A stretch of 58,464 nt of DNA from a virus (IMGVR_UViG_3300021400_000097); one strand, 5' to 3'; positions 1-50,512 are shown, numbered from the stretch's first letter. Numbers and translations: made by a program. The notes: a model not told the origin generated them from the letters alone.

Positions 1-107
1 CCTCCCAGCCGATATTGGAACGCTTGCACCTGTAGATGGTATCGTCTGTGTATATATCCAGGTGGTGAACGGTCTTATTGCCAGCCTCAGTGAGATAGTA
101 GCCCCAG
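1..107. repeat. Exact 107-bp terminal duplication of the window (1-107 = 58358-58464). Assembly overlap of a circular or circularly permuted genome of 58,357 bp.
   Basis: Read directly: the first 107 nt are identical to the last 107 nt. The portal reading frame is continuous across the junction. Confidence 0.9.
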
Positions 108-3712: not shown

Positions 3713-4822
3713 CTATTCTTTCTTCTTAGCGTTTATAAAGTCTGTCACGTACAACAGATTGTGCTCCTGGCAGAAAGCCTGGATCTCATCACCTCCACCA
3801 TAGACGATCAGGTTAGGCTGTTCCAGTCCACTGATCTCCTGGGCTACCTTTAGATCCAGTTTCAGGCTCTCCATCCAGCCATCAAGCCCTCTGGTAAAGA
3901 AAGCATTGTAGCCTTTCGGAATACCCATCTTATTGTACTCAATGAACTTGTGGGACACGTTCAGATCGGCATACACCTTAACACCACACTCCTGGAGATA
4001 CCTTGCAAGCCAGCGTTTCTTATAGATCAGGGAAATGCCATAGGCAATAGGTGTCTGGTCATGGCAGCTACAGTTAGGCTCCACGATAGCCTTGCATCCA
4101 CTCATAATGAGCTTTACAGGATCCTTGAAAAGAGCCTCAAACCTGTAATCATCCACATAGAAATGGTACGTTGCCACATCCTTTCTCAGTCTGCTGTTAG
4201 CACCCCAGGGTGAAAGAGGCGTTTCCAGGAAACCAGCTTGCTCCTCCAGGAGTAGTGTGGGGATGTCGAAAGGATTGTTTGCTGGGTAGAGCACATCCTT
4301 TAGCATGGATCGGTAGAAATCCTCCTTTTCGGCATCCTCCTCACTCTGTTCCTCGTTATCCTCTGAATCATTCTCCTTACCCTTTTTGCCTTTCTTCTTC
4401 TTTGGCTCCTCCTCTGGATCGTCTGGATCACCCATCGGCTGTGCCTGAGGAATACCCAGGTAGTCATAATCAGCACTTTTCCAGAAAGGATCAACGTGTA
4501 AGGTGTTGTACTCCCAATCACCGTTTTCCACGTTATCCCTGGCTATCAGCTCCTGCCTATCCTCATCAGTCAGATCAGTGTAGAGGATGGTGGGCACCTG
4601 AGGCAGTTTCAACTTGATTGCAGCCTTGTTTCTCTGGCTGCCACACAGGATCAACAGTTTTCCATCAACCTCCTCCAGAGCCTCAGGCCTGTGCTCCCAG
4701 AATCCATTGGTACGGATGCTATCAACCAACCTCGCAAAATCCTCCTTAGAGATCTTACGTGGGTTGTGGGGATGCTGGTGTAGGGTTTTCGGATCCCTGT
4801 ATATGATCTTTCCTGCTTTCAT
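3713..4822 (-). CDS. ParB-like N-terminal nuclease domain fused to a DUF4417-like C-terminal domain
   Basis: 369 aa. The N-terminus (LHQHPHNPRKISKEDFARLVDSIRTNGF...LCGSQRNKAA) resembles the ParB/Srx fold. An acidic linker follows. The C-terminal part has YHFYVDDYRFEALFKDP, typical of DUF4417 (from memory of the family). Confidence 0.6.
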   Translation of the reverse strand: MKAGKIIYRDPKTLHQHPHNPRKISKEDFARLVDSIRTNGFWEHRPEALEEVDGKLLILCGSQRNKAAIKLKLPQVPTILYTDLTDEDRQELIARDNVENGDWEYNTLHVDPFWKSADYDYLGIPQAQPMGDPDDPEEEPKKKKGKKGKENDSEDNEEQSEEDAEKEDFYRSMLKDVLYPANNPFDIPTLLLEEQAGFLETPLSPWGANSRLRKDVATYHFYVDDYRFEALFKDPVKLIMSGCKAIVEPNCSCHDQTPIAYGISLIYKKRWLARYLQECGVKVYADLNVSHKFIEYNKMGIPKGYNAFFTRGLDGWMESLKLDLKVAQEISGLEQPNLIVYGGGDEIQAFCQEHNLLYVTDFINAKKKE

Positions 4823-11756: not shown

Positions 11757-12395
11757 TTATTTGTTGAAATAAAAATCTCCCACAGTAAAATTGAATGCCA
11801 GGTACTCAGCCCAGAGCTTGATAAACTGCTGACCAAAGTAGATAGCTTTTTCTTCTGTTTCCTGGCACAAGCGGAACCCAAAAGGCGCACACGCATTCGA
11901 GGAACGATAATGCGCACTCAGAGAACCGAAACCAGCACCCGCACCATTATCCGCAACCGCAGACAGGAGGGCACCATTGAACTGATCTTTACGATCCTCT
12001 ATCTCCTGTTTAGTCCACAGAGCAAACCAGGGGTACCACATAGTGGTGCTGCCCTCAGCATCAGGCTTAGGCTCCCAGTTCTTTCCCCAGAGGGCACGGC
12101 TGATAGTTTCCAGCTTAATAAGAGCCTTGATGTGGTCTGGCATTGTCATGGGGATGCTACCTACATTCGGATCAGCAGATAACTCCACCATTGCCAGGGT
12201 GTCAAAGTTCATGGGCTTGCAACCCAGGGCTACACAGGCATCCTCATAGGTCTTGATAGACTTGTAATCATCCAGGTTAGGCTTTTTCTCAGGCTTGCAG
12301 AAAAGAGCTGCCAGCACGTCTTTCACCTCCTGAGACTTAGCAACCTCCAGAGCTGCCTTAACCTCTACCTCAGTAACGATAATTTGCTTACTCAT
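11757..12395 (-). CDS. Second (remote) DGR target protein, 212 aa, with an internal variable region
   Basis: Residues GALLSAVADNGAGAGFGSLSAHYRSSNACAPFGFRLC are encoded by VR2, which matches the TR at 25673-25778 except at template adenines. A 35-aa tail follows the VR. Confidence 0.8.
   Translation of the reverse strand: MSKQIIVTEVEVKAALEVAKSQEVKDVLAALFCKPEKKPNLDDYKSIKTYEDACVALGCKPMNFDTLAMVELSADPNVGSIPMTMPDHIKALIKLETISRALWGKNWEPKPDAEGSTTMWYPWFALWTKQEIEDRKDQFNGALLSAVADNGAGAGFGSLSAHYRSSNACAPFGFRLCQETEEKAIYFGQQFIKLWAEYLAFNFTVGDFYFNK
11864..11975 (-). repeat. DGR variable region 2 (VR2)
   Basis: The core 11870-11975 aligns base for base with TR 25673-25778 (106 bp). There are 14 mismatches, all where the TR has T on the + strand (A on the coding strand). 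The 3' end shares the TTGTGCC variant with VR1. Confidence 0.85.
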
Positions 12396-19670: not shown

Positions 19671-19777
19671 TTCTTTCCCCACACCCCTATTTCATATACA
19701 CATTCTTTCTCTTTTATATATTTTCTCTTATTCTTATTATATATAATATATATACCCCCAGATAACTTACATTTAAT

Positions 19778-20070
19778 TTTGCTTAGGCAAACGGCTTTTT
19801 TTGCTTAGGCAAAATGAAAAAAATTAGTCTTGATTATCAGATAGTTATGATTTTTGCTTAGGCAAACGGCTTTTTTTGCTTAGGCAAAATAAATTTTGCT
19901 TAGGCAAAAGTGCAAGCAAAACGTAAGCAAAATGGTAAGCAAAATTAAAGCAAAATACGTTTGCTTAGGCAAATTAGAAATTTTGCTTAGGCAAAATGAA
20001 AAATTTGCTATCTGATTATTAGATACTTACAAAATTTGCTTAGGCAAAACATTATTTTTGCTTAGGCAAA
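19778..20070. repeat. Array of 9 exact, same-orientation copies of TTTGCTTAGGCAAA, plus 4 phased AAGCAAAA half-sites
   Basis: 12-mer cores start at 19779, 19801, 19854, 19876, 19896, 19961, 19983, 20036 and 20058 (spacings 22-53-22-20-65-22-53-22). Half-sites at 19914, 19925, 19937 and 19948. The last copy lies inside the 3' end of int. Confidence 0.85.
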
Positions 20071-21323
20071 ATTGGATCCTTGAAACACCTCTTTATCTTC
20101 ACCAGGTTAAGAACTTTCCTGTTGGCTTTATCTATAGGATCCCAGCTCTTTCTGATATAGGTATCTGTGATCTTCGTCTCATCATCCACATGGTTGAGGG
20201 CTGTGTGTACAGTCCACTTATCCACTCCAGCATCATTCTGTGCTATGGTTGCCCAGGTGTGTCTGGCAGAATAGAAATCCAGCTTATCCATCCCCAGATC
20301 CTCAGCAATCTTTTTCATGCCATAACCGATAGCCTTATGTATGGTGCTCATAGAGGAATACATCCTGTAGAACTTGAACACTCTCTTACCAGACGGATCT
20401 CTGTACTTATCAACCAGCTCCTGGATCTCAGGCTGGATCTTGATGGAGATCCTGGCACGATCAGCCCTCCTGTTTTTGGTTTTGGTACGCTCATAGGTGA
20501 TCCTACCTCCTTTGCAGTCCTCGCAGTAGTACATATCCACCAGATTCATTCCCACCAGTCCAAAGCTCAGTATAAACAGATCCAGGGCAAAGTTGTACCT
20601 GTTAGTGTTAGGGTACTGGCTGGTGATGTAAGGCAGATCCAGCAGCTTTCTCATCTGTTCCAGGGTAAGAGCCCTTTTCTCTGGCACTGGCTCCTTTGGC
20701 AGATCTATATGTGAGAAAGGAGAGTTTGGGATCCTGATCACTCCAGCATCCTCATCATTGAACTCCTTTTTTGCCATGTTATGAATTGCCCTCAGCTTTG
20801 AAAGATAGTTGTGAGGCGCAAACCCTTTCGTGCATCTACCCTTATCCAGGATCCAGTCAGCCCATGATCGGAGCATCTTAACAGTCACCTCCTTAATGCT
20901 AACCTTATCCCTACCCAGGAACTTGATAAGGCTGTTTATAGCCACCAGGTAGGTCTGGGCGTTACCATCATGCCCTGTTTCCTGGAGCCTCCTGATATGC
21001 TGCCTGGTGTACTCGACAATATCCAGATCCCAGTGCTCCTCCAGAGGCTTTTCAATGAAAGCCACCACCTCATCAACGGTCATACCCTTAATCCTGGTAC
21101 CCAGCTGATCACACCTGTAGCGGTACTGCCTGATAAGATCCTCTGTCATATCAATGTACCTCTGGTTTTTCAGTTTCAGTGATCTGGTAAGATCATCCTT
21201 TGTCACGTACCAGGGAGTAGCCAGGTATCTCTTACGCTGGTTTTGCGTTACTCTGATCTTGATGTTATAAGTGCCATCAGCCTTTTTCTGATGGGCATAC
21301 ACCTCTGCCTTGAATGTTGCCAT
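20052..21323 (-). CDS. int: Tyrosine recombinase / phage integrase
   Basis: 423 aa. The C-terminal catalytic region has SARHTWATIA and LNHVDDETKITDTYI. SAM-like N-terminal domain. Confidence 0.85.
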   Translation of the reverse strand: MATFKAEVYAHQKKADGTYNIKIRVTQNQRKRYLATPWYVTKDDLTRSLKLKNQRYIDMTEDLIRQYRYRCDQLGTRIKGMTVDEVVAFIEKPLEEHWDLDIVEYTRQHIRRLQETGHDGNAQTYLVAINSLIKFLGRDKVSIKEVTVKMLRSWADWILDKGRCTKGFAPHNYLSKLRAIHNMAKKEFNDEDAGVIRIPNSPFSHIDLPKEPVPEKRALTLEQMRKLLDLPYITSQYPNTNRYNFALDLFILSFGLVGMNLVDMYYCEDCKGGRITYERTKTKNRRADRARISIKIQPEIQELVDKYRDPSGKRVFKFYRMYSSMSTIHKAIGYGMKKIAEDLGMDKLDFYSARHTWATIAQNDAGVDKWTVHTALNHVDDETKITDTYIRKSWDPIDKANRKVLNLVKIKRCFKDPILPKQK

Positions 21324-21410
21324 TTTGCTGCCTGTAGAATTATTGTAGAACTTTCCGCAGCAAAATTACATAAAATTTGCGGATTTTGATTGTTTATTTT
21401 TGGAAAATTG

Positions 21411-21482
21411 TACCCCCGATGAGAATCGAACTCATATCTCAGCTTTAGGAGAGCCGTGTTCTATCCATTGAACTACAAGGGC
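21411..21482 (-). tRNA. tRNA-Arg(CCT): tRNA-Arg (anticodon CCT)
   Basis: Hand-folded cloverleaf: GCCCTTG TA GTTC AATGGATA GAAC A CGGCT CTCCTAA AGCTG AGAT ATGAG TTCGATT CTCAT CGGGGGT A. The acceptor stem has 3 G-U pairs. No encoded CCA. Confidence 0.7.
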
Positions 21483-23579: not shown

Positions 23580-23970
23580 TTCTTTGTCTTTTCCATTTAT
23601 TGCGCTTGTATGATTCAAAGTTTTCCCTATCCTCCTGGGTGATCTCCACTGATGGAGGGAATACCCTGAAACCATACATAGTGCCATATTTAACTACTTT
23701 GATTACAGCTCTCATGGGATAGTGTCTGCCAGGATTGGCAAATACATCTTTCACTTTCTTGCTGTCAGTGAAGAAAGCAGACTTACCATAACCCTCACCA
23801 TAAGCGATCAGGCATCTGGATCCGTTCTCTGTCTGCCTCTCTGGATCACACCCTGTAAACACCGTTACCTGGTTGATAACAGCATCAATGGATGTAAACT
23901 CACAGTCGAAAATGTCAGCTTTGCCCTGGCTTACACTATCATCCACAAAATCAACGATCTCCTGTGCCAT
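23572..23970 (-). CDS. Hypothetical protein (132 aa)
   Basis: ATG start overlapping the upstream stop (TAATG). Confidence 0.55.
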   Translation of the reverse strand: MAQEIVDFVDDSVSQGKADIFDCEFTSIDAVINQVTVFTGCDPERQTENGSRCLIAYGEGYGKSAFFTDSKKVKDVFANPGRHYPMRAVIKVVKYGTMYGFRVFPPSVEITQEDRENFESYKRNKWKRQRNG

Positions 23971-24395
23971 TACTCTACCTCTTTAAGATCCTTGCAATCC
24001 TCATCCACCATAGCACGCAGATCCAGCCTCTCATGGAGGAAAGCAATATAAGGAGCCTTAGCATCCTCAGGCAGCAGTCCAAGTACAGCACTGTTGTACT
24101 CGTTCTGTAGCTTGCTCTCAGTGTTGGCTGGGTACTTAGCGGTAAGCAGCGTAGAATAGATGTTATCGGCAGTCTTTGGATATTCAACCCTCAGGCTGTC
24201 ATACTGCCACATGGTACCTGTAGCTTTCTCTGGATCGTCAGTAACAGTGATGTTGCCATCCTTATCCACGATCACCAGCACCTCCTTGATATTGTGATTG
24301 TAATGGATGGTGCCCTGGCCGTTATTCAGATCTTTGAATACTTCTGGCTTTTCGTTTGCCAGCAGGCCAATAAATAATACTTTACTTTTTTCCAT
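23970..24395 (-). CDS. Hypothetical acidic protein (141 aa)
   Basis: Its ATG start overlaps the 3' end of the RT gene by 14 nt. Confidence 0.55.
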   Translation of the reverse strand: MEKSKVLFIGLLANEKPEVFKDLNNGQGTIHYNHNIKEVLVIVDKDGNITVTDDPEKATGTMWQYDSLRVEYPKTADNIYSTLLTAKYPANTESKLQNEYNSAVLGLLPEDAKAPYIAFLHERLDLRAMVDEDCKDLKEVE

Positions 24396-25515
24396 TGCTT
24401 AAACATTTATTAAATATGAAATCACTGTGCTCCTTATCACATCTGATTATCCAGCCATACTCAGACGGAAACAGGTGCTTAATATCATCCTCATTACTGA
24501 TCTGGTATTTCTCCTTTGTCTTTTCCAGCTTTTTGTAGAATCTCAGCAGAATCCCCTTTCTCAGGAGTATTCCGTAATGATCCTGTTTGAATCCAACATA
24601 GTCTATACCACGATCATCAACTGGGAATATCTGCCAGTTCGGTTTGATCTCCACCTTTAGCACTGATCCCAGATAGAGCCCTAAGGCATCCAGGACGTAG
24701 TGCAGCCATTCCTTGCTCTCTCCCAGCACCACTATATCATCCATGTATCTGTAGTAGTACTTAACGCCCAGCTCCTCCTTTACCCAGTGGTCGAAATATG
24801 CCAGGTACAGATTAGCCAGGTACTGGCTGGTGAAATTGCCTATTGGCAGTCCTTTTTCCTTACCGTTGCTATCAATTATCTTATCCAACAGCCTCAGCAA
24901 ACTCTCATCGGCTATGCTATAGCGGATGATCTGTTTCAGCACTGAGTGATCCACATTGTCATAGAACTTTCGGATGTCGATTTTCAGGCAGTACCTGGTA
25001 CCGATCCGATCTTCTATCAGAGCCCTGTGTACATCCTCCATACATTTGTGGGTACCACGCCCTTTGATGCAAGCGTATGTGTTCGCTATGAATATGTGGT
25101 ACCAGTGAGGAGCCAGCACATTGATGATACAGTGGTGTATCACCCTGTCTGGAAAGAAAGGAGCTATCATTATATCCCTCTCCTTAGGATCAAAGATCTT
25201 TTTAGTCCTATATATTCCAGGCTCAAAGGTTTCCTCACTCAGGATCTCATACAGGGTAGCCAAGCAATCATTCAAATTGTCATTGAACGCCTTTACCTCA
25301 CCTCTGTTCTTTTTGCCCTTTTGGGCTGTGTACTGAGACTTGATCAGGTTTTCGGTACTATATACCAGCGGATATACATTCTTGATCTTCTTTACAGGAG
25401 AAATATAGATCTTTCCTGTGTTTCCGATATAGTAGCCTACATCCTCAAAATCATGGTACATTACAGAGACGTTATACTGGTTGGCATCAACTTTGGCTTT
25501 CTTCTTTTTCTCCAT
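24382..25515 (-). CDS. DGR reverse transcriptase
   Basis: The track ORF starts at a TTG (25533). The first ATG is at 25515 (MEKKKKAKV). RT motifs include YRYMDDIVVLG (YxDD) and the DGR-typical LPIGNFTSQYLANLYL. The TR lies immediately upstream. Confidence 0.9.
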   Translation of the reverse strand: MEKKKKAKVDANQYNVSVMYHDFEDVGYYIGNTGKIYISPVKKIKNVYPLVYSTENLIKSQYTAQKGKKNRGEVKAFNDNLNDCLATLYEILSEETFEPGIYRTKKIFDPKERDIMIAPFFPDRVIHHCIINVLAPHWYHIFIANTYACIKGRGTHKCMEDVHRALIEDRIGTRYCLKIDIRKFYDNVDHSVLKQIIRYSIADESLLRLLDKIIDSNGKEKGLPIGNFTSQYLANLYLAYFDHWVKEELGVKYYYRYMDDIVVLGESKEWLHYVLDALGLYLGSVLKVEIKPNWQIFPVDDRGIDYVGFKQDHYGILLRKGILLRFYKKLEKTKEKYQISNEDDIKHLFPSEYGWIIRCDKEHSDFIFNKCLSNGKK

Positions 25516-25662
25516 TTGTGTGCCGTTGCTCAATCAGGAGCTTTCAATTACTTACTCACACCTTACTGAATCACTATTGTTTTACCAACTGCCAGCAGTG
25601 CCAGCAGTCCCTGTGAGGTAGGGTTGCAGAGGTCTAACAGTTATTCTTGTTTTCAAGGAAAA

Positions 25663-25778
25663 CCACGGTAAAAGCGGAACCCAATATTCGCATTCGCATT
25701 CGAGGAACGATTATTCGCATTCAGATAACCGAAACCAGCATTCGCACCATTATTCGCATTCGCAGACAGGAGGGCACC
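25663..25778 (-). repeat. DGR template repeat (TR)
   Basis: Noncoding. The core 25673-25778 is co-linear with VR1 and VR2. The coding strand carries 22 adenines arranged as 10 AAT plus TAT plus ATT in the target reading frame. Confidence 0.9.
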
Positions 25779-25886
25779 TGACCTTGCAACCTTTTATTTT
25801 ATATTTTCAAAGAACTCTCTTTTTGAAAGGTGGGGAGGCAGCTTTTAGAAAAGCCACCGCCCACCGTGTTTTGCAGTCGTGGCGTT

Positions 25887-27239
25887 TCACCCACGGCACA
25901 AGCGGAACCCAATAGTCGCATACGCATTCGAGGAACGAGCATTCGCATACAGAGAACCGAAACCAGCAGACGCACCATCAAGCGCAACCGCAGACAGGAG
26001 GGCACCATACCACCCAGAGGGTGATGGGTACCAGTAGTAGTCACATACGCCCTCATTGGCAGCTCCACCAACCTTATCAATGAATGAGTAGCCCTTATGG
26101 TTGTGAGACATTGTAAGTCCATAGCCAGATGCCAGAGGCAGCTCAGATGCCAGCTCATAGCCAGCTGGAACGGTTGTAGCACTGTCAGAGTGAGAGGTGA
26201 ACTTAGTAGGATCCTCACATACGTAAGCCTCAGAAACACCCTCCTTATGCCAGATCAGTACATCGTCTGCCAGCATCGTGAGATATTCAAAAGGCACCTC
26301 CAAACCACGGTAAGATGTAACCTGGATGGTCTTATCATTACCAGAGTTTGCCCAGTTCTTGATCACGTAGGAAACCTTACCAGTGTTGTTACCCAGTGTG
26401 GCAGTAACACCACATGGAACGAAAGGATTGTAGCCGTTGTGGGTGTTCCACTCACCACCATTCACAGAACATCCGCTACCCAGGCCTCCCTGGTGGAAAC
26501 CGTCAGCTGTCAGTGTTGTGGTGTATGTGTCCTGGCAGTCCATAGAGGCATATTCAACCCTCTGGAGCCATGCAATTTCATTGTACACCCTGTAAGCTCC
26601 ATGATGGATGCCGTTGCCAGCAGCGTTGCACCATCCACGCACGGTATTCTTATTGACAGATGTACGTGCCATACCTACAAAGCTCCTGTAGGTACCATCG
26701 TAAGATGCAGATCCGTTACCACCCCTGAATCTGGCAGCATTCTCTGTAAAGACAGGCAAACCGTTTGCATCCCTGGCAATTTCGTTGCCATTCCAGGTAA
26801 GCCAGCAGCCACAGACAGGCTTTTTCAGCTGATCATCGTAGGTACCAAAGGTGAAAGAGATTGCCTTACGCTCCATCTTGATAAAGCCAGGCAGCGGATA
26901 TTCAGAGTAAGCCCTGAGCCACTTAGTACCCTCAAATTCCATACGGAAATAGTACTCAGGCTTTTCAAGCATTACGTTACCATCGGTACTGTCAATGATG
27001 GCAGCAGCACCAGAATCCCTTTTACGGCTGTCATTCTGTCCGAGGTAGTACTTAACGGATCCATCCTCATTCTCGACAAAGCGTCTGAGCTTTTGCTGGA
27101 TGGGTAAGGTACGGTGCAGATCCAGATTGCCAACCCTGGTAAGGTGACGATCCCTGCTTGTAAAATCACCCTGTACGCCATACCACATATCGTAAGGGTA
27201 TTGTGGCTTAGATGAGCCACTTCCTAAAAGCATTCCCAT
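25887..27239 (-). CDS. DGR target protein 1 (tail-module, receptor-binding candidate) with a C-terminal variable region
   Basis: The ATG at 27239 (MGMLLGSG) lies 4 nt after the upstream stop. The track start at 27290 overlaps that gene. The C-terminus GALLSAVALDGASAGFGSLYANARSSNAYATIGFRLCRG is encoded by VR1. Confidence 0.85.
   Translation of the reverse strand: MGMLLGSGSSKPQYPYDMWYGVQGDFTSRDRHLTRVGNLDLHRTLPIQQKLRRFVENEDGSVKYYLGQNDSRKRDSGAAAIIDSTDGNVMLEKPEYYFRMEFEGTKWLRAYSEYPLPGFIKMERKAISFTFGTYDDQLKKPVCGCWLTWNGNEIARDANGLPVFTENAARFRGGNGSASYDGTYRSFVGMARTSVNKNTVRGWCNAAGNGIHHGAYRVYNEIAWLQRVEYASMDCQDTYTTTLTADGFHQGGLGSGCSVNGGEWNTHNGYNPFVPCGVTATLGNNTGKVSYVIKNWANSGNDKTIQVTSYRGLEVPFEYLTMLADDVLIWHKEGVSEAYVCEDPTKFTSHSDSATTVPAGYELASELPLASGYGLTMSHNHKGYSFIDKVGGAANEGVCDYYWYPSPSGWYGALLSAVALDGASAGFGSLYANARSSNAYATIGFRLCRG
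25890..26006 (-). repeat. DGR variable region 1 (VR1)
   Basis: The core 25901-26006 compared with TR 25673-25778 (106 bp) has 13 mismatches, all at TR adenines on the coding strand. It ends at the stop codon of the target gene. Confidence 0.9.
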
Positions 27240-27243
27240 AGCT

Positions 27244-27537
27244 TTACTGTTTAATTGATTCACCAGCTCCCCAGTAAACATCGTAGTCACTCAGCGATAT
27301 AGCGTCTGGGGAAATTTCCACTATAGCAGCTGGTGTCCAGTCACCTACAGGCACTGGAAAATCACTGGCCTCTTTGTCACAGAGACACTTACACTGAATG
27401 ATAGTGTTCTGTTCCATTGAGGGCTTTTTAGGCCTCACGAAAACAGAGAAAGGAACTCCTCCGTTCAGTTTGAAACCATTTGTGAGTTCTGTTATTTGTC
27501 CTTTGGATAGGATCCTCAGGCTGTACATTTCGTTCAT
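27244..27537 (-). CDS. Hypothetical protein (97 aa)
   Basis: ATG-started ORF. First gene after the promoter at 27567. Confidence 0.5.
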   Translation of the reverse strand: MNEMYSLRILSKGQITELTNGFKLNGGVPFSVFVRPKKPSMEQNTIIQCKCLCDKEASDFPVPVGDWTPAAIVEISPDAISLSDYDVYWGAGESIKQ

Positions 27538-27735: not shown

Positions 27736-28218
27736 TTATTCTGATTTCTCTGTAAGCCTCTTTAGAGCAACCTCCAGGCTGTTGATTTTATCCCTGATGG
27801 ACTGCCTGGATGTATGGAGATCCTGGGCATTGTAAGGCATAGCCTCACCGATCAGGAAAGCCTCATAGCATTTGATCACTTTGTAATCTGTATTATCAAG
27901 CTCCTCTTTGAGTGCCTTGATCTGGTTTTTGTAATAAGCCAGATTCTGGATCTTCTCATAGGTATAGCCTATGTGATCATCGTACTCCACAGCAACAATC
28001 CTGATAGCATAGCCAGGATCACACTCCAGCTTGCTCTCATCAATCATATCAACTGGTTTCCATCCTGATTTAGTGAGCTCCTGGATCTGTTCATCCACAG
28101 TGATTATCCTCTCCTGGATGGTAGGCTTATCATCCTTAACCACCTGGATCCTTTCCGTGCGCTGGACTATCTCCTGTGTCCTGAGCACACCATCCTCAAT
28201 AATTCCGTACCAAACCAT
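27736..28218 (-). CDS. Hypothetical protein (160 aa), downstream of the tail-fibre gene
   Basis: ATG start 3 nt after the stop of the 1970-aa gene. Confidence 0.55.
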   Translation of the reverse strand: MVWYGIIEDGVLRTQEIVQRTERIQVVKDDKPTIQERIITVDEQIQELTKSGWKPVDMIDESKLECDPGYAIRIVAVEYDDHIGYTYEKIQNLAYYKNQIKALKEELDNTDYKVIKCYEAFLIGEAMPYNAQDLHTSRQSIRDKINSLEVALKRLTEKSE

Positions 28219-35818: not shown

Positions 35819-38800
35819 TTATGCTATACCTTGTGAAAGTAATGAGCTACCACTGTTCCTGATAGCCTGTAATTCCGTTTTGATACCTTTGAGCTCCGAG
35901 ACGGTGTTTGCCGTATTCTGGCTGATCTGTGCCTGGTAGATCAGGATAGCCCTCAGCTGGGCTGTCTGGTCTGCCTGGTTGATGATAAAGGCATTGAGCC
36001 TACCAGCAATAATGCCACCTGTATCTTCGCTCATACTCATCACAGCACCAGTGAGAGGATCCGTATTCTCCTCCACATCCTTGATCCAGTCACCAATACC
36101 CTCCAGAGCCTGGTTAAAGAGGTTTCCAGCCTGGTTTACCATAGTGGTGAAATGCTGCCTCTCAGTGTCTGACAGAGAGCCGTCACGCAAAGATTCACCC
36201 AGGTAATCTACAGCATCGTTGATACCCTTTGCCAGGAACTGACGCTTTAATGATTCCACAACAGCCTTTTTCAGCACCTCCTTAGTCTTTTCACCCAGAG
36301 CCACTGCTGCATCCTCACCCTGGCAGTAGGCATCCACCAGAGCATCTGCAAACTCATCAATGGCAGACTTAACATCGGTACCAGCTAACAGCTCTATCTC
36401 CTGGCGGTGTAGATCCTCTATCTGGCTGTCAATATCCTTGATGTTTTCCTCCCATTTCTGGATCTGATCCCAGTCGGTATCTTTCTTATCCTTTTCAGCC
36501 TCAATCTGCCGTTTGATCAGCTCCTGCTGCTGCCTGAGGTTTTCTTTCTGCACCTCAAAAAGATCCAGACTGTCACCAGTATTCTTGACTTTCTCCAGGG
36601 TGTACTGGAGCTCCTTGATCTGCTTGTTATATTCTGCAACCTTTCCAAATTCCCATGCCCAGGAGGCTGCTGCTGCCTGTTGCTGTAATGTAGCAATCTG
36701 ATCCTCCACAGCCTTAACCCTCATCCTGTAGGCTTGCTCCTCCTCATCAGTGAACTCCCAATAGGTGTGTGACATCACATTCTGGAGGCGGTTGAAAGCA
36801 CTACCCAGGCTGTCAATCTGCCTCTGGTAGCCCTCAATCTCCTCCTGGAGCTCATCATCATTATTGAACAGGGTAGCGATCCACTGAATAGCGGAAAGAG
36901 CCATAGATATTGCAGCCAGTATCACAGAGGCTTTTTCAGCTGTCTTGATAGCTGCTGCCATAGCAATACCAGCCTGGGTAACACCCATGATCATATCCAT
37001 TGTAGCCTTACCATTGTCACCGATCAAGTCACCCAGTACGGAACAGCTGCTGATAGCATCATTAACGAAATCAAAGCATCCCTGTGTGGCATTACTCAGG
37101 TCTTTCCAGTCTGTCTTGATCTGCTTTGATGTTTTCTTGGATCCATCCTGCTGTTTCTTGAATACGTTGGTAAGAGCTGTGCCCAGAGCCTTGAATGGGT
37201 TAGTGTCGAGCACTTTCTTCTTTGCCTCATCAAGTTTATCCATCACTGCTTTCAGATCGGCTGGATTCATTTTCAGATCGGCTGTGCTCATCCTCTTACG
37301 AATGTCGGCAATCAGTTTTTCAATCTGATCCACTGTCAGGGAATCCAGATCGCTAAACAGGTCTTTCCAGCTGTCTGTCTGCATCAGCATCTGTGCATTG
37401 AGGGCTGAAAGAGCCTCAGCCTCTGCCTGGTTGATCTGAGCCAGGCGATCAGCATCACCCTGTTTCATAGCCTCGTTTCTCAGTAGCGTGTACTCCTGGG
37501 TGATAGATAGCTTTTTCTCCTCAAAGGTACGGTAGTTATTCAGCACCTCATCAGATACCTGTTGGTTAAGATCTGTTTCCTGGTTTTCCAGGCTGTAGGC
37601 TGCTGCTGCTGCATCATCCTCATTGAGGTGGAAATCACCACGTGCAAGGCGATCTTTCAGATCCTGGACTGCCTGGAGCTTTTCAGCAAGCGTCTGAGCC
37701 TGACCTACAGCCCTCTGTAGGCTTTCCTTGAACTGATCCATAGCTGTCTTATTGCCAGCTATCTCATCTTTCTGGAGCTTTAGGGCATTGAGGGCATTGG
37801 CATCACCATCTGTAAGCGTGCCAGCTGCCTGTTTAGCCTCCAGATCCGCTATCTGCTTATTCACCCAGGATGTAAAGCTGGATCCCTCAGCAATGAGCGT
37901 TTTGAAATGGCTGTCAGCAACCTCCTGACCTACATTCTTTACCCAGTTGAAATATGCCTGGTACTGCCTTTTCTTATACTCTATCTCTCCATCAAAGAGC
38001 TTTGTACTCTCAGTATCGTAAGACTGCTTTTCCAGGTTTCTCCTCTCCTGGAAAGCTGCTCTCTCATTAGCGGACAAACCACCTTTCTTACCAGCCCTCT
38101 TATAGGCATTCTCCAGCTCTTTCTCCTCTTTGTTGATACGATCCAGAGCCTCCTGGTGCTGGAGATCCAGAGCTGCCTTTCGCTTAGCATAGCCCTCCTC
38201 CATAACCTGGATCCGTGCCTCCTCCAGCTTACGCTGTGCCTCCAGCTGTTTCTGTGCAAGCTGTTCCGCACTGTTCGCAGCACTGCCAGAGCCACCAGAG
38301 CCACCCCTACCTGTTTTCTTGGTAAGGTTATTCCTATCCATTTTCTCCTGGAGCTGTAGGATCTGCTTAGCATTCTCAGCACGTTTCTTGTTACCATACT
38401 CCAGTGTTGCATTCTCCTCCCTGAGAGCCTTGATCCTGGCTTGTATTCCCTCATCAGTATTGAGGTTATTGGTCTTAGTGGTGACAGCACCATTGAGCTG
38501 TGCCTGGAGCCCTAACAGCTCCTGGAGTTTCGCTTTGAGAGCGTCTAACTGGCTTGGATTGGTCTTAGGATCAATGATCTTAGCATTGAGCTTATCAATC
38601 TCATCCTGGTTTTCCTTGATCTTCTTATCCAGATCCTCAAAGCTCATTTCAACATAGTTGGTGCTCTCCACTACAGGAGTAGCATCCTTAGGTGCAAAGA
38701 ATTTACTGAGTGAAGTATCAACACGGTTGATGGTATCATCCATTTCCTTTGCCTTAGCGATCTGATCATTGAGGTAGGTTTCCACATGGTATTTCAAACC

Positions 38801-41209
38801 CTTTATCTCTGCATCAGTTGCTCCAGTTGCCTCCTTTGTTGCAGCCAGGATCTGCTGTACCGTCTTATTGAAAAGCTCAGTGGTATCTCCGTTGGTACCA
38901 GCAATGATCTTAGCATTCTCCTCAACGATAGAACGGATGGCATCCTGTACCTCCTTTTGCATATTCTGGATGCTCTCAGCATCAGCCATAACATGGATAG
39001 TGTAGGTTTCACCGTTATCTTTTACCTCATGTGTTCTACCAGTATCGTACTGTGCGTGCTCCAGACGATTAGTAAACTTTGTAAAAGCCTCATCGGATGC
39101 TTTGATGTAATCCTGTACGGCTTGCTCCACATACTTACCCTTGATCTTCTCAGCTGTTGTTTCCTGGATGGCTTTTGTAAGCTCATGGTATTTCAGCTTT
39201 TGCTCATCAATGGTGGCATTCTCATCCAGCAAGGTCTTATTGTACTCCTTACATATAGCATTAACCTTTTCAATGGCATCCTTATGTGTCTTTGTCTCTT
39301 TGTCGGTACTCTGGAGGATGGCAAAAAGCAGATGGAGCTGGTCGATCTCCTCTTTGGTAGTTTTCTGGAAATCACCCATCACATCAGCTGCCTCCTCCTC
39401 CTCGTTTCCAAAGAGCGTAATGGCAGAAATAACAGTGCCAATGATCGTTACCAGCCAGCCGATAGGATTAGCCAGCATGGTAGCCCAGAGAGCCCTGAGA
39501 GCCATTGTAGCCTTAGTGGTAGCCACGCTAAGGAAATTGGTGGCTGTAGTCTGTACTGTCTTAGCTGCTGTGTCTGTCTGGGATGCTACAGTGGACTGCC
39601 TGGTGGCTGTAGTCTCCAGGATCTTTTTCTTTGTGTGGAAATCAGTCTGAGCTGCCAGGGCTGCTTTCCTGGTTATTGCCTGGTTATCCTGTGCTGCCTC
39701 CAGCTTTTTCTCTGCTGTTGCAATGGCAGTGGCATCACCAGTCTGCTTTGCCCAATACACCTCATAGCGTGCTGCCTCAGTACGCTGCATGGCTGCTACT
39801 GCTGCTGCCTTTGTGGATTCAACCCTCCTGGCTGCTGCTGACACATCAGCACGCATGGCATCCAGGGTAGCGGTGGTGTTGGCTCTCTTAGCCAGTACCT
39901 CCTGTTCCAGGGCTGATCGGTATATGGCACTGTTGGCACTCAGATCCAGCTTGCTTACGCTCATCCTTTGCTCAACGGAAAGAACGCTCATAGCTGCTGC
40001 CTCATAGCCCTCTGAGCTGGTTGTGAGCCCCAGGTTAGATATGTACTCCTGCTGCTGGGCTGTGAGTAGGCTCTGGATGGTGGCTATCCTCAGGTTTTTC
40101 TGGATGGTAGCAAGCTCCTCTGCTGTGAGCTCCTTTTCCAGAGTGGCAATGTGAGCCTCCTGAGCTGCTTGCATGGCTTTGGTCTGGGCTGCAACCTGGC
40201 CTGTGGCAACTGCCTCAGCTTTCATCAGTCCGATCTTAGCCTGTCTTACCGTGTTGTCGATCAGGGCAACACCAGTATAACCCTTAGTAGCAAGGGTATT
40301 GAGCACAATGGCTGCTTTGTATGATCCGTAGGATATAACAATAGCCTCCAGAATATCCAGGATCTTCTGGTAATTCTCCACCAGGTAGGTAGCACTGCTG
40401 ATAGCACCAGCAAATACATCCTGATTGGATGTGCCTATATCATTCAGCATACCATCCCAGGCATCCTCCAGATTGGAGATCATACCAGTAAGGGATGCTG
40501 ACTGCTTTTCCATAAGGTTGTAGAACTGACCACCAGCATCCGTGAGGCTGTTGATCACCTTTTCTACATCAGGGAATCCGATCTTACCAGCTGATACCAT
40601 ATTGTTGATCTCCTCAGCTGTAACACCGTACATCTTAGCCAGCTCCTTAACCAGAGGAATACCACGCCCTGTGAACTGCCTAACATCCTGTGCATAGAGC
40701 CTACCCTGTACCATCGTGGTACCATACAGGTAAACTATATCATTGAGAGGAATAGAGAGGCCTGAGGCTATGTTTCCCAGACGTACCAGGGTGTCATTCA
40801 CCTTATCTGCTGCCTCACCATAAGCGAGTAACTGTTTTGCACCTGAGGCAACACCCATCAGGTCAAAAGGCGTGTGGGCTGCTGTGTCTATCATCTGATC
40901 CATCAGAGCCTTTGCCTTTTGCTCGTTACCCAGCATGGTACCAAAAGCAATCTCCAGCTGCTGGAATTGTCCCCTAACCTGTACTATGCTGTTTAGTAAG
41001 CCAGTCATTCCCTGGCCTACCAAATAGGCTTGAATATACATGGCACCTTTCTGGGCAAAGTCTAACATACTTTGCTCCATAGCCTCGGCCTCTATCTGTG
41101 TTGTGGTAGATACCTGTCTAATGTGTCTCTCCATAGCATCGGCAGACACATTGAAATCATTTATATCTAAAGTGGCTACAAAGCCTAAACCTCCATTGAT
41201 ATTCTCCAT
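35819..41209 (-). CDS. Tape measure protein (1796 aa)
   Basis: Size, an Ala/Gln/Glu-rich helical composition, central hydrophobic segments, and a position directly after the chaperone G/GT pair. Confidence 0.85.
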   Translation of the reverse strand: MENINGGLGFVATLDINDFNVSADAMERHIRQVSTTTQIEAEAMEQSMLDFAQKGAMYIQAYLVGQGMTGLLNSIVQVRGQFQQLEIAFGTMLGNEQKAKALMDQMIDTAAHTPFDLMGVASGAKQLLAYGEAADKVNDTLVRLGNIASGLSIPLNDIVYLYGTTMVQGRLYAQDVRQFTGRGIPLVKELAKMYGVTAEEINNMVSAGKIGFPDVEKVINSLTDAGGQFYNLMEKQSASLTGMISNLEDAWDGMLNDIGTSNQDVFAGAISSATYLVENYQKILDILEAIVISYGSYKAAIVLNTLATKGYTGVALIDNTVRQAKIGLMKAEAVATGQVAAQTKAMQAAQEAHIATLEKELTAEELATIQKNLRIATIQSLLTAQQQEYISNLGLTTSSEGYEAAAMSVLSVEQRMSVSKLDLSANSAIYRSALEQEVLAKRANTTATLDAMRADVSAAARRVESTKAAAVAAMQRTEAARYEVYWAKQTGDATAIATAEKKLEAAQDNQAITRKAALAAQTDFHTKKKILETTATRQSTVASQTDTAAKTVQTTATNFLSVATTKATMALRALWATMLANPIGWLVTIIGTVISAITLFGNEEEEAADVMGDFQKTTKEEIDQLHLLFAILQSTDKETKTHKDAIEKVNAICKEYNKTLLDENATIDEQKLKYHELTKAIQETTAEKIKGKYVEQAVQDYIKASDEAFTKFTNRLEHAQYDTGRTHEVKDNGETYTIHVMADAESIQNMQKEVQDAIRSIVEENAKIIAGTNGDTTELFNKTVQQILAATKEATGATDAEIKGLKYHVETYLNDQIAKAKEMDDTINRVDTSLSKFFAPKDATPVVESTNYVEMSFEDLDKKIKENQDEIDKLNAKIIDPKTNPSQLDALKAKLQELLGLQAQLNGAVTTKTNNLNTDEGIQARIKALREENATLEYGNKKRAENAKQILQLQEKMDRNNLTKKTGRGGSGGSGSAANSAEQLAQKQLEAQRKLEEARIQVMEEGYAKRKAALDLQHQEALDRINKEEKELENAYKRAGKKGGLSANERAAFQERRNLEKQSYDTESTKLFDGEIEYKKRQYQAYFNWVKNVGQEVADSHFKTLIAEGSSFTSWVNKQIADLEAKQAAGTLTDGDANALNALKLQKDEIAGNKTAMDQFKESLQRAVGQAQTLAEKLQAVQDLKDRLARGDFHLNEDDAAAAAYSLENQETDLNQQVSDEVLNNYRTFEEKKLSITQEYTLLRNEAMKQGDADRLAQINQAEAEALSALNAQMLMQTDSWKDLFSDLDSLTVDQIEKLIADIRKRMSTADLKMNPADLKAVMDKLDEAKKKVLDTNPFKALGTALTNVFKKQQDGSKKTSKQIKTDWKDLSNATQGCFDFVNDAISSCSVLGDLIGDNGKATMDMIMGVTQAGIAMAAAIKTAEKASVILAAISMALSAIQWIATLFNNDDELQEEIEGYQRQIDSLGSAFNRLQNVMSHTYWEFTDEEEQAYRMRVKAVEDQIATLQQQAAAASWAWEFGKVAEYNKQIKELQYTLEKVKNTGDSLDLFEVQKENLRQQQELIKRQIEAEKDKKDTDWDQIQKWEENIKDIDSQIEDLHRQEIELLAGTDVKSAIDEFADALVDAYCQGEDAAVALGEKTKEVLKKAVVESLKRQFLAKGINDAVDYLGESLRDGSLSDTERQHFTTMVNQAGNLFNQALEGIGDWIKDVEENTDPLTGAVMSMSEDTGGIIAGRLNAFIINQADQTAQLRAILIYQAQISQNTANTVSELKGIKTELQAIRNSGSSLLSQGIA

Positions 41210-48979: not shown

Positions 48980-50512
48980 ATGAGCAATATTTTCGATACA
49001 GAGTATTTTCCAACACCCAGGGAGGTGATCTCACAGATGATCGCCCCCTACAGGAAAGAAATAAGTAAGAGGCAGATCCTGGAGCCCAGTGCTGGTACTG
49101 GCTCCATCCTGGATTACCTGGCAGAGAGTTACGGCTATAAGGCTCCTAAGGCAAATATGTACGCCTGTGAGATCAATCCAGAGCTGGTGATGGTACTACA
49201 GGGCAAAGGCTATAAGATCCTGGCTGATGATTTCCTCTCCTACAAGCCCTCACACACCTTTGATCTTATTGTTATGAATCCACCGTTTAGCAATGGTGAT
49301 GAGCACCTGTTACACGCCTGGGATATACTGTGGACTGGTGATGTGGTCTGCCTCCTGAATGCTGAGACGATCCGCAACCCATACACCCAGAGGAGAAAGC
49401 TCCTGGCACAGATCATCCAGGAGCACGGATCTGTGGATTACCTGGGTAAATGTTTCAGAGGTGCCAGCAGACAGACAAACGTGGAGGTAGCTATGGTGAG
49501 ACTGCACAAAGAGGTGGAGGATCAGCGTTGGCACATAGACTTTGGGGATGGTGCAAAGGTAGAGGGTGTGCCTGATTTCAAAGAGGCTGTTTCCTCTGGA
49601 TCTGAGATCGCTGTGGTGGATAAGCTGGGAGATTACCTACACGCCTGGGATAAGGCAAAGGAGGCTGCTGTGGAGTTCATCAAGGCACGTAAAAAGCTGG
49701 ATTTCTATGTTACTGCTTTCATGGGTACTGAGGATGTGAGCAAGCTGGTAGGAGAGCAAATGAGAGAAATGCAAGGATCTGGTAATGATATGCAATCGGC
49801 TTACAATGCTTTTCTGAATGCTGCTAAGTCCAGAGCCTGGAAAGAGATCATTGCTAACCTGGGTATGGATAAGTACATGACAGCCAACCTGAGAAAGACG
49901 TTTGATCAGTTCTGCGAGGCTCAGGGTGCCTATGAGCTTAACAGGGATAATATATACAAGCTGATCCAGTTTGTATGCCTCAATAGCCAGAATATCCTGA
50001 AAAAGGCTGTGGTGGATGTGTATGATATGTTCACCAGGTTTCATAAGGATAACACTGAGCTCACTGAGGGATGGAAAACAAACAGCCAGTTCAAGGCAAA
50101 CAAAAAGATCATTCTGCCCTACTTTGTTTCCTCTGACTGGAGTAGCACTTTCAGAGCTGACTGGAATAGGTACAATGAGTACAGGGATATTGATAAGGTG
50201 ATGTGTTTCCTCTCTGGGCTATCCTATGACAGCCTAAACAGCCTCTCAGAGCAAGGTAAGGCTAAGATGAGCCAGATGGGTAGCTACAACTTTAGCAGGG
50301 AGGCTACAGCGGAGGATTACACCAACCTGAGCCTGGAAAAGGCTATCTCCTTTGTCAGGGTAGGTGATTCCAGCCTCCATGAGAGTGCTTTCTTCAATTT
50401 CAGGTGCTATAAGAAAGGTACCTTGCATATCATATTCAAGAGCGAGGATCTTTGGGCACGCTTTAACCTGGCTGTGAATGAGGGAAAGAAAGAGCTGGGA
50501 TTTACTAAGTAG
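48980..50512 (+). CDS. N6-adenine DNA methyltransferase with a C-terminal DUF4942-like extension
   Basis: 510 aa. Motif I is ILEPSAGTGSILDYL. Motif IV is VMNPPFSNG (NPPF). Confidence 0.8.
   Translation: MSNIFDTEYFPTPREVISQMIAPYRKEISKRQILEPSAGTGSILDYLAESYGYKAPKANMYACEINPELVMVLQGKGYKILADDFLSYKPSHTFDLIVMNPPFSNGDEHLLHAWDILWTGDVVCLLNAETIRNPYTQRRKLLAQIIQEHGSVDYLGKCFRGASRQTNVEVAMVRLHKEVEDQRWHIDFGDGAKVEGVPDFKEAVSSGSEIAVVDKLGDYLHAWDKAKEAAVEFIKARKKLDFYVTAFMGTEDVSKLVGEQMREMQGSGNDMQSAYNAFLNAAKSRAWKEIIANLGMDKYMTANLRKTFDQFCEAQGAYELNRDNIYKLIQFVCLNSQNILKKAVVDVYDMFTRFHKDNTELTEGWKTNSQFKANKKIILPYFVSSDWSSTFRADWNRYNEYRDIDKVMCFLSGLSYDSLNSLSEQGKAKMSQMGSYNFSREATAEDYTNLSLEKAISFVRVGDSSLHESAFFNFRCYKKGTLHIIFKSEDLWARFNLAVNEGKKELGFTK

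Follow-up and report, generated by a model that had tools for sequence, protein, structure and literature searches.

The prototype of the diversity-generating retroelements (DGRs), that of phage BPP-1, is arranged as mtd-avd-TR-brt and is, to our knowledge, the only DGR to have been dissected biochemically; Avd is essential in it. In the same system, a DNA hairpin or cruciform located just 3' of the VR boosts homing. Among curated DGRs, Avd is found in 74% and is absent from 26%, lineage 3 being entirely devoid of it and sub-lineage 3A occurring only in Bacteroides and relatives (PMC5758913). The CH1 accessory proteins of architecture E, whose genes flank Avd-less Bacteroides DGRs, measure 160-169 aa and have a pI of 4.7 +/- 0.2 (PMC5758913). 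Two-target phage DGRs have been described in Bacuni phages (PMC8143477), in tentaclin phages (PMC10743442) and in four Bacteroidota prophage species (PMC12629997), and DGRs are present in 43% of the inducible Bacteroidota prophage species (PMC12629997). Both Avd-less and two-VR DGRs are already on record for phages of Bacteroidota.

Phage IMGVR_UViG_3300021400_000097, whose whole stretch of 58,464 nucleotides was analysed here (the window), carries a genuine DGR. The element is of the accessory-poor (Avd-less) type, and its carrier is a complete, circularly closed, temperate siphovirus-like Bacteroidales gut phage of 58 kb, kin of Bacteroides phage Versailles. A first-pass annotation had placed the core parts on the minus strand in the order target, TR and RT, an arrangement that is borne out by the coordinates and by similarity searches; its description of the DGR as complete holds for these three parts and fails for Avd, of which no homologue is detectable. 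We assign a probability of roughly 0.93 to our explanation as a whole, namely an Avd-less DGR in which a single TR serves two targets through the mechanism proposed below, carried by a Bacteroidales phage.

Adenine-restricted divergence of the repeats

The template repeat (TR; 25663..25778, minus strand, with a 106-nt core at 25673-25778) is recognised by its composition and reading frame, and VR1 (25891..26006, minus strand, with a variable core of 106 nt at 25901-26006) by its mismatches to the TR. Our script comparison agrees with the earlier claim that the two cores align without gaps over 106 nt and differ at 13 positions, each a T on the plus strand: the 13 mismatches all fall on TR adenines and none on the 84 non-A positions, and realignment of the core revealed no non-adenine mismatch. 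The chance that 13 random mismatches would all hit the 22 adenines among 106 positions is 3.1e-11. An independent repeat search recovered the same pair as 25663-25783 and 25891-26011, with 86% identity. In addition, a second copy, VR2 (11860..11975, minus strand, with a 106-nt core at 11870-11975 followed by the IMH ending GCT-TGTGCC), lies 14 kb away from the cassette and has 14 of its 14 mismatches at TR adenines and none at the 84 non-A positions (chance probability 3.0e-12). Between VR1 and VR2 there are 13 differences, all at A sites and none at non-A sites, and the two VRs therefore derive from separate homing events.

In the frame of the target, the 22 adenines of the TR are organised as ten AAT codons, one TAT and one ATT, as had been proposed, and they occupy codon positions 1 and 2 only. 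Twelve codons are thereby randomised from the TR, and none of 55 distinct VRs contains an in-frame stop. The TR itself is near-invariant across 38 related loci.

Our comparison set comprised 56 related IMG/VR loci. In 33 TR/VR pairs from related contigs, 409 of the 726 A sites are changed, as against 7 of 2772 non-A sites, and the site entropy of the VRs in relatives is 1.79 bits at A sites versus 0.084 bits at non-A sites. The replacement of A is about even (T, 144; C, 140; G, 125). Five non-A positions distinguish Versailles-type TRs from the TR of the window, and the same five changes are found in their VRs; such lineage-specific changes, common to TR and VR, show a flow of information from TR to VR. 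A contig that is 94-97% identical to the window (L002; 94.4% over 9.1 kb) has a VR2 in which 14 of the 22 A sites, and 0 of the 84 non-A sites, differ from the orthologous window VR2. Since so close a relative already differs at the A sites of VR2, diversification is recent by the standards of this lineage. What these alignments record, here as in relatives, is the outcome expected of misincorporation at template adenines.

IMH and IMH* at the 3' flank

All VRs carry ...GCTTGTGCC, the IMH, and all TRs ...GCTTTTACC, the IMH*. At VR1, the IMH runs on as ...GGGTTCCGCT-TGTGCCGTGG (25891-25900), overlapping the stop codon at 25887-25889; at the TR, the IMH* is TTTACCGTGG (25663-25672). GCT-TGTGCC is present in both VRs of the window and in 54 of 54 true VRs of relatives, and GCT-TTTACC in 38 of 38 TRs of related loci, the split being fixed among the 38 TRs and 54 VRs. 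By analogy with BPP-1, we infer a functional role for this difference. Regarding secondary structure, VR1 (z-score -1.9) shows a 5-bp stem (CGTGG/CCACG) after the IMH and a larger hairpin 37 nt downstream, no hairpin follows the IMH of VR2 (folding z-score 0.05), and the relatives show neither a consistent fold 3' of the IMH nor a convincing conserved hairpin.

Structured spacer and absence of Avd

The 147 nt between TR and RT (25516..25662, minus strand) form a conserved structured non-coding RNA, as judged by covariation and by comparison with Rfam. Its predicted fold pairs the TR 3' end (CCGTGGTTT) in a long-range helix with AACAACGG, just before the RT start, and includes two further internal hairpins. 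For an alignment of only 8 sequences, which represent about 4 lineages, RNAalifold predicted 30 pairs, and compensatory changes are seen in 9 of these; 95.8% of the cells in this alignment are paired, versus 24-51% when the partners are slid, and none of 500 shuffles reached the covariation score. The spacer matches Rfam RT-17 (RF03020) over the full model length with 26.2 bits (E 0.005-0.012), and that of another locus (L037) does so with 34.6 bits, both below the gathering score of 40.4; at best, the window spacer may be a diverged relative of RT-17.

Neither Pfam nor NCBIfam gave a match in the four flanking small ORFs, and no Avd homologue was found in 42 of the 49 small ORFs of the window (60-200 aa), which were joined into two concatenated pseudo-proteins and compared with Pfam at E <= 0.05. 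Likewise, no relative in the set has a detectable Avd adjoining the cassette. The RT stop is overlapped by 14 nt by an acidic 141-aa ORF (o141; pI 4.8; 23970..24395, minus strand), which belongs to PHROG 11557, annotated as of unknown function, and has no Pfam or NCBIfam match. In three distant loci with RTs 47-49% identical to that of the window (L079, L080 and L093), only o141 and target 1, out of the cassette and tail proteins, remain beside the RT, L093 keeping an endolysin homologue too; in L085 (RT 43%), o141 and an endolysin homologue are kept, and the locus extends just 170 nt upstream of the RT, on the side on which the target is expected. We regard o141 as a candidate DGR accessory gene.

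The lack of a detectable Avd is also the point that speaks for a fossil DGR, that is, an element that worked in the ancestors of this phage and is inactive here, for instance after the loss of Avd, the VR differences being relics. However, the RT ORF is intact and has every catalytic residue, all 22 TR adenines are kept, and IMH and IMH* are both intact. Moreover, the relatives also have no detectable Avd beside the cassette, yet 55 different VRs are found, and the L002 VR2 has diverged from that of the window at A sites exclusively. We therefore consider a fossil unlikely and favour the Avd-less DGR.

A second target in the replication module

Target gene 2 (11757..12395, minus strand) encodes a 212-aa protein of PHROG 11581 (1.5e-67), annotated as of unknown function. 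The gene sits within the early replication/recombination module, flanked by a 150-aa ORF and NinB, and its neighbours include replisome organizer, NinB, metallo-hydrolase, RecT and SbcC-like genes. This distal target was absent from the first-pass description of the element. Unlike VR1, VR2 lies inside its ORF and is followed by about 34 conserved residues. Among 3177 homologues, the columns matching the AAT codons are hypervariable, the flanks are strongly conserved and the tail GFRLCQ.TEEKA.YFG is invariant. Besides the window, 15 related loci have VR2-type targets, the isolate Versailles among them, and LoVEphage-type phages have distant homologues of the protein with 35-37% identity. Target 2 shows no evident signal peptide and no function match in Pfam or NCBIfam; its AF2 model is poor (pLDDT 59) and unusable in the VR half, the N-terminal half being helical.

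VR2 could instead be a non-functional bystander, a homing site that arose by chance or has decayed, in an ORF that the phage could do without, rather than a selected second target. Such a view would fit a protein without known function, a VR that is internal and not C-terminal, and a site with no hairpin behind it. Nevertheless, the frame, the IMH and the hypervariable AAT-derived codons are kept in the 15 loci besides the window, as well as in over 3000 proteins from databases, stops are absent from all 55 VRs, and the flanks, including the invariant tail, are strongly conserved. Furthermore, distal second VRs near counter-defence genes have been found in four Bacteroidota prophage species (PMC12629997). 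A bystander is, in our opinion, quite improbable, and we take VR2 as a selected second target.

The reverse transcriptase

The DGR reverse transcriptase (RT), identified by homology on the minus strand, starts either at an ATG (24382..25515, 377 aa) or at a TTG (24382-25533, 383 aa); the ATG at 25515 is more likely, because the conserved spacer RNA extends up to it. The YMDD and IGNFTSQ motifs that had been reported are indeed present, the ORF at 24382-25533 reading ...YRYMDDIVVLG... and ...LPIGNFTSQ.... The protein matches Pfam RVT_1 (3.7e-18) and PHROG 1423 (1.3e-122). Its closest solved structure is Bordetella phage bRT (8ub7_A; E 8.2e-35 over 288 residues), versus 1.2e-11 for the best group II RT and 5.1e-11 for the best retron-type RT, which puts bRT ahead of the next solved relative by 23 orders of magnitude. 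The equivalents of bRT residues R74, I181, Q187, D138 and D215/D216 are kept in the window RT; the catalytic and adenine-mutagenesis residues of bRT have been named previously (10.1101/2023.10.23.563531). Similarity searches, in short, side with DGR RTs and not with group II intron or retron RTs. None of the refuting outcomes listed in the first-pass annotation came up in the realignment, in these RT searches or in the comparison of related loci that stood in for reads.

Three other classes were considered among NCBIfam models and set aside: the group II intron RT (TIGR04416), top match at 1.8e-31 with 109.5 bits against a cut-off of 300; the retron RT, with 47 bits for the St85 model against 235; and the defence RTs, with 69 bits against 200 for Drt3a and 60 against 390 for Drt2. 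An Rfam scan of 25300-26100 found no intron RNA family and no retron msr/msd family. That the three 106-nt copies are mere paralogous repeats or gene-conversion tracts, beside an RT that belongs to another retroelement (group II intron, retron or defence RT), has a negligible probability, since the group II RT/maturase, Drt3a, Drt2 and retron matches that would suggest it all lie far under their curated cut-offs, bRT leads the solved relatives by so wide a distance, Rfam shows no intron or msr/msd RNA in 25300-26100, and neutral divergence cannot give adenine-only mismatches in two targets and 33 further pairs.

The tail target

Target gene 1 (25887..27239, minus strand) encodes a 450-aa protein of PHROG 5302, 'tail protein' (3.5e-109), or one of 467 aa if translation begins at an alternative GTG (27290). 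VR1 codes for its last 39 residues (...GFRLCRG-stop), as first described, which correspond to the 106-nt core plus four codons. The gene closes the tail module of tape-measure, 420-aa and 1970-aa genes, in agreement with an assignment to the module's end. It had further been said to follow the 1970-aa fibre gene; both are in the same module, but two small ORFs of 160 aa (o160; 27736-28218) and 97 aa (27244-27537) lie in between. Homologues of target 1 measure 450-457 aa, and a single 90% cluster contains 36,228 member sequences.

The GFRLC ending is typical of CLec VRs. The AF2 model of target 1 has a pLDDT of 72 and a pTM of 0.77, with a pLDDT below 50 in the VR segment. The top Foldseek match, the DGR variable protein TaqVP (5vf4), agrees with a C-type-lectin fold at the tip but is weak (E 0.035, probability 0.66, TM 0.35-0.40); Mtd ranked 7th (E 0.7), and at the sequence level no similarity to BPP-1 Mtd was found. 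The VR1-coded tip is presumably a receptor-binding tip.

Proposed model and implications

Our findings allow us to propose a model in which a transcript covering the TR and the spacer of about 147 nt would be copied by the RT, cDNA synthesis beginning at the TR 3' end and probably being cis-primed, by analogy with BPP-1, from the structured spacer paired with that end. The RT would misincorporate opposite the TR adenines, and the resulting cDNA would replace the VR at sites bearing the IMH ...GGGTTCCGCTTGTGCC, while the variant IMH* ...GCTTTTACC would shield the TR; the functions are those suggested by BPP-1, and the sequence rule comes from the comparison of loci. In this way, one TR serves two targets, the C-terminal 35 codons of the 450-aa tail protein and an internal stretch of 35 codons in the 212-aa protein.

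A more tentative possibility, which we rate as doubtful, is that this lineage combines Avd-independent mutagenic retrohoming with another helper and a TR that diversifies an intracellular early-gene protein, that of VR2. If this were true, the helper would be o141, the small protein translationally coupled to the RT, and the 212-aa VR2 protein, instead of binding a receptor, would bind host factors or defence proteins in an evolvable manner.

For the habitat concerned, there is nothing unusual about the element. Its value lies in its clean and compact make-up (target, TR, 147-nt spacer, RT and a coupled small ORF, without Avd) and in its many natural variants. It makes testable how Avd-less DGRs assemble and prime cDNA synthesis, and what advantage a phage draws from the hypermutation of a small protein whose gene sits with replication and recombination genes. 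Being compact and free of Avd, such a DGR would also be of interest for the targeted-mutagenesis tools that are being built from DGRs.

Comparison with known systems

The DGR of BPP-1 and the one described here share the order target, TR and RT on one strand, a VR at the 3' end of a tail protein gene, adenine-specific mutagenesis with an AAY-rich TR, and an IMH in the VR that differs from the IMH* in the TR. The 147-nt spacer has a counterpart of similar length and location in the 140-nt Sp of BPP-1; however, the window spacer resembles Rfam RT-17, whereas BPP-1 has been assigned the RT-10 motif (PMC5737381). BPP-1 has avd between VR and TR, where the window has 108 nt of non-coding DNA from the target stop to the TR (122 nt from the VR1 core), and it has one target instead of two. 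Relative to BPP-1 bRT, the window RT carries a 45-residue N-terminal extension.

The target-TR-RT core without avd, HRDC or MSL is that of the Avd-less architectures A/E of Wu et al. 2018 (PMC5758913), and Bacteroidales hosts are shared with the lineage 3/3A DGRs (PMC5758913). Both o141 (pI 4.8) and o160 (pI 4.9) resemble CH1 by description only, o141 being below the CH1 size range.

Phage Versailles (ON453897; 58.1 kb), an actively induced prophage of B. caecimuris I48, is similar in genome size to the window phage and has the same layout of tail fibre, small ORFs, target, TR, RT, small ORFs and endolysin. Its TR equals that of the window save for five non-A substitutions, and a second VR is found, as here, in an orthologous gene (582 nt, 193 codons) adjoining NinB. 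At the DNA level, the megablast match between both phages is restricted to TR and spacer (81%), their proteins are about 63-72% identical, and the TR-VR1 spacing is 202 nt in Versailles versus 228 nt in the window. The Versailles record annotates a 'reverse transcriptase' and a 'tail protein' and no DGR features.

As in the two-target phage DGRs described so far, a single TR serves a cassette target and a second target far off in the genome, and the placement of the distal VR is similar to that in the prophages of PMC12629997, where it lies amid non-structural or counter-defence genes. The Bacuni phages have Avd and targets with DUF1566 or Fib_succ_major motifs (PMC8143477), unlike the second target described here, a 212-aa PHROG 11581 protein whose N-terminal half is helical and whose VR is internal. 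Taken together, the DGR of the window is a typical case of a class previously described in gut phages.

Identification of the element and its reverse transcriptase

Our results show that the template repeat (TR, 25778 down to 25673) and the first variable repeat (VR1, 26006 down to 25901) align on the minus strand over 106 nt without a gap, as claimed in the first-pass annotation; the same pair was also recovered independently by a repeat search of the window. All 13 differences between TR and VR1 fall at TR adenines and the realigned core holds no non-A mismatch, the chance of 13 mismatches all falling on 22 of 106 positions being 3.1e-11. The template design described earlier is found as well: in the target frame the 22 adenines make up 10 AAT codons, one TAT and one ATT, and none of them occupies a third codon position. 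Target 1 is indeed a 450-aa ORF (25887-27239) ending in GFRLCRG, whose last 39 residues are encoded by VR1 plus four codons, but it does not directly follow the gene of the 1970-aa protein, from which two small ORFs separate it. The original observation is confirmed and its interpretation as a diversity-generating retroelement (DGR) is supported; judging from sequence, we assign a probability of roughly 0.93 to a DGR with two targets.

The proposed reverse transcriptase (RT) motifs, YMDD and LPIGNFTSQ, are present in ORF 24382-25533, in which the ATG at 25515 is the likelier start. Regarding the possibility of a group II intron or retron enzyme, Pfam returned a generic RVT_1 domain only, and the top match in NCBIfam, a collection without a DGR model, was a group II maturase model (109 bits; cut-off 300), followed by Drt3a, Drt2 and retron St85, all far under threshold. 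When the protein was compared with all PDB sequences, the best match was 8ub7_A, a 328-aa 'Reverse transcriptase' (E 8.2e-35, residues 49-336), ahead of a group II RT (1.2e-11) and retron-type RTs (5e-11). We infer that 8ub7_A is bRT, the RT of the Bordetella phage BPP-1 DGR, because its numbering of R74, D138, I181, Q187, D215 and D216 coincides with that of the residues named for bRT (10.1101/2023.10.23.563531). The equivalents of all these residues are kept in the window RT, which also matches PHROG 1423 (reverse transcriptase, 1.3e-122). Judged by best hits and by diagnostic residues, the enzyme groups with DGR RTs and not with those of group II introns or retrons, in agreement with the earlier assignment.

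Two targets in different modules

Target 1 matches PHROG 5302 'tail protein' (3.5e-109) and closes a tail module comprising a tape-measure protein (35819-41209), a 420-aa protein and the 1970-aa protein, which carries segments matching tail-fibre and host-specificity families. Neither target 1 nor the four flanking ORFs had a match in Pfam or NCBIfam. The AF2 model of target 1 (pLDDT 72, pTM 0.77) is poor in the VR segment, and the best PDB match found with Foldseek was the DGR variable protein TaqVP, at E 0.035 and TM 0.35-0.40, with Mtd, the BPP-1 target protein, at rank 7. This weak match is not counted as proof of a C-type-lectin fold, and it is in line with the prophage-borne variable proteins of Bacteroides classed as 'domain group 2' (10.1101/2024.11.15.621889).

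When the TR was moved stepwise over the window on either strand and only non-A mismatches were scored, a third copy (VR2) emerged at 11870-11975 on the minus strand, with 14 A mismatches and 0 non-A mismatches. Between VR1 and VR2 there are differences at 13 A sites and nowhere else. VR2 lies inside a 212-aa ORF (11757-12395, target 2) and is followed by about 34 conserved residues; therefore, it is not C-terminal. The gene is placed outside the structural module, among neighbours encoding a replisome organizer, NinB, a metallo-hydrolase, RecT and an SbcC-like protein. Its product matches PHROG 11581, of unknown function, has no match in Pfam and NCBIfam, and has a distant homologue (35-37% identity) in LoVEphage-type phages. 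In the AF2 model of target 2, confidence is restricted to the helical N-terminal half (pLDDT 59 overall, about 30 in the VR half), and a Foldseek search with it returned nothing below E = 5 and no structural neighbour. Within the family, which has more than 3000 members, the hypervariable columns fall exactly at AAT-derived codons.

Variation and homing signals across related loci

The exact full-length A-masked TR pattern occurs in only one IMG/VR contig, and a shorter core of 36 nt with its A positions masked was required to scan the collection, yielding 56 loci. Across the 33 loci with one TR and at least one VR each, TR and VR differ at 409 of 726 A sites versus 7 of 2772 non-A sites, with T, C and G replacing A about equally (144/140/125). 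Over 55 distinct VRs entropy averages 1.79 bits per A site, compared with 0.084 bits at the other positions, and no stop codon is found in any of them. Relative to the window TR, TRs of the type found in the Bacteroides phage Versailles show five non-A changes, all of which recur in their VRs; such lineage-specific changes, common to TR and VR, indicate a transfer of information from TR to VR in each lineage. A related contig (L002) shares 94.4-97.5% identity with the window across 14 kb, and its VR2 differs from ours at 14 of 22 A sites and at 0 of 84 non-A sites. Concerning target 1, a single 90%-identity cluster of its family (P0126) holds 36,228 distinct sequences and others 1,500-2,600, the pattern that sampling of many DGR-generated variants by assemblies would give. 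With the cassette as megablast query, the phage collection gave a match only to Versailles, confined to its TR and spacer.

Directly 3' of the core, TGTGCC is found in both window VRs and TTTACC in the TR. The same dichotomy holds in the related loci, with TTTACC in 38 of 38 TRs and TGTGCC in 54 of 54 genuine VRs, of VR1 type and VR2 type alike. By analogy with BPP-1, these flanks (IMH of the VRs, IMH* of the TR) are what would be expected of a homing signal by which recipients are marked and the donor is spared. The DNA 3' of VR1, VR2 and TR did not fold significantly better than shuffles, and the folded flanks of relatives had no common hairpin. In seven IMG/VR loci (L011, L023, L024, L034, L036, L040 and L051), some copies in the TR position, flanked by TTTACC, are substituted at A sites or combine TR and VR sequence as chimeras, and in L040 and L051 both copies appear VR-like. 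These odd copies may be artefacts formed when short reads were assembled through the 106-nt repeat, or may come from occasional mutagenesis of the TR itself.

A structured spacer and a candidate partner of the RT

The TR-RT spacer matches the Rfam family RT-17 over the full length of the model at 26.2 bits, under the gathering score of 40.4 (E 0.005-0.012), and the spacer of a related locus (L037) reaches 34.6 bits. RT-1 to RT-19 were described as candidate RNAs adjoining RT genes, RT-10 being located in the TR-RT spacer of BPP-1 (PMC5737381). Aligning eight distinct spacers yielded a fold of five helices and 30 pairs, with compensatory changes at 9 of the pairs, and 95.8% of cells are paired versus 24-51% with the partners slid. 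The covariation score was reached by 0 of 500 shuffles, in a test that used the same alignment from which the structure was derived, its eight sequences amounting to about four lineages. In the outer helix of the predicted fold, the TR 3' end (CCGTGGTTT) pairs with AACAACGG just upstream of the RT start codon. The active site of the BPP-1 RT holds a duplex of TR 117-129 and Sp 47-56, the priming nucleotide being Sp A56 (10.1101/2023.10.23.563531), and a similar cis-priming geometry is plausible here. A scan for sigma-70 promoters and terminators, unsuited to Bacteroides promoters, gave nothing above expectation.

No homologue of Avd, the BPP-1 accessory protein, was detected with Pfam and NCBIfam in the four cassette-flanking ORFs, nor with Pfam in 42 of the window's small ORFs, searched as concatenated pseudo-proteins with GS linkers; the 'Serglycin' matches obtained in that search are linker artefacts. 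Only 108 nt, non-coding, separate the target 1 stop codon from the TR. Among curated DGRs, avd is present in 74% and an architecture with no accessory gene (A) accounts for 29%, while lineage 3 has no avd, sub-lineage 3A is restricted to Bacteroides and relatives, and some such DGRs encode CH1, a small acidic accessory protein of 160-169 aa and pI 4.7 (Wu et al. 2018, PMC5758913).

The cassette is flanked by three small ORFs with acidic products: o160 (27736-28218, minus strand; 160 aa, pI 4.9, PHROG 17180) and o97 (27244-27537, minus strand; 97 aa, pI 4.8, PHROG 22750), both between the 1970-aa fibre gene and target 1, and o141 (23970-24395, minus strand; 141 aa, pI 4.8), which overlaps the RT stop codon. 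The size and charge of o160 match those published for CH1, although its retention beside the RT is less consistent than that of o141. When 80 RT-related loci from GTDB genomes were searched with all window proteins, o141 immediately followed the RT in all loci whose RT is at least 60% identical. In L079, L080 and L093 (RT 47-49% identical), o141 and target 1 are the only cassette or tail proteins that stay beside the RT, an endolysin homologue being also kept in L093. In L085 (RT 43% identical), which extends only 170 nt upstream of the RT, where a target would be, o141 persists with 26% identity, and here too an endolysin homologue is present. The fibre, o97, o160 and two further ORFs (o132 and o234) are not retained in these distant loci. 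Co-retention with the RT thus suggests o141 as a candidate cassette component; a homologue search with it returned close relatives only, all unnamed. An Avd-less mechanism with o141 as candidate partner and a structured spacer, and the role of a hypervariable early-gene protein, are worth following up.

The phage and comparison with known systems

The first 107 nt of the window (1-107) recur unchanged as its last 107 (58358-58464). The genome is therefore complete and closed into a circle, 58,357 bp of it being unique, and the portal gene appears to run across the closure point. The genome encodes a terminase, portal, major head protein, integrase and endolysin. An 823-aa protein (54575-57046, minus strand) matches PHROG 16625 'Bxa ADP-ribosyl transferase' (1.5e-289) and carries a fused head-morphogenesis/minor-head-protein domain. 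A tRNA-Arg(CCT) gene (21410-21482, minus strand), which could be a phage tRNA or an attachment-site remnant, adjoins the integrase gene (20052-21323, minus strand), just upstream of which (19760-20073) offset BLAST matches between L002 and the window point to tandem-like repeats of about 100 nt.

The phage is related to Versailles, an active B. caecimuris prophage. Hankyphage provided the first known DGR in Bacteroides phages (PMC6199706), DGRs with two targets have been described in Bacuni phages (PMC8143477) and tentaclin phages (PMC10743442), and 43% of inducible Bacteroidota prophage species are reported to carry DGRs, four species having a distal second VR near counter-defence genes (PMC12629997). 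Unlike that arrangement, the methyltransferase-like genes of the window, encoding a 510-aa DNA-methyltransferase-like protein (48980-50512, plus strand) and a 369-aa ParB-like nuclease/methyltransferase-like protein (3713-4822, minus strand), are not adjacent to VR2. Since both DGRs and two-target DGRs have already been published for such phages, the element described here belongs to a known kind.
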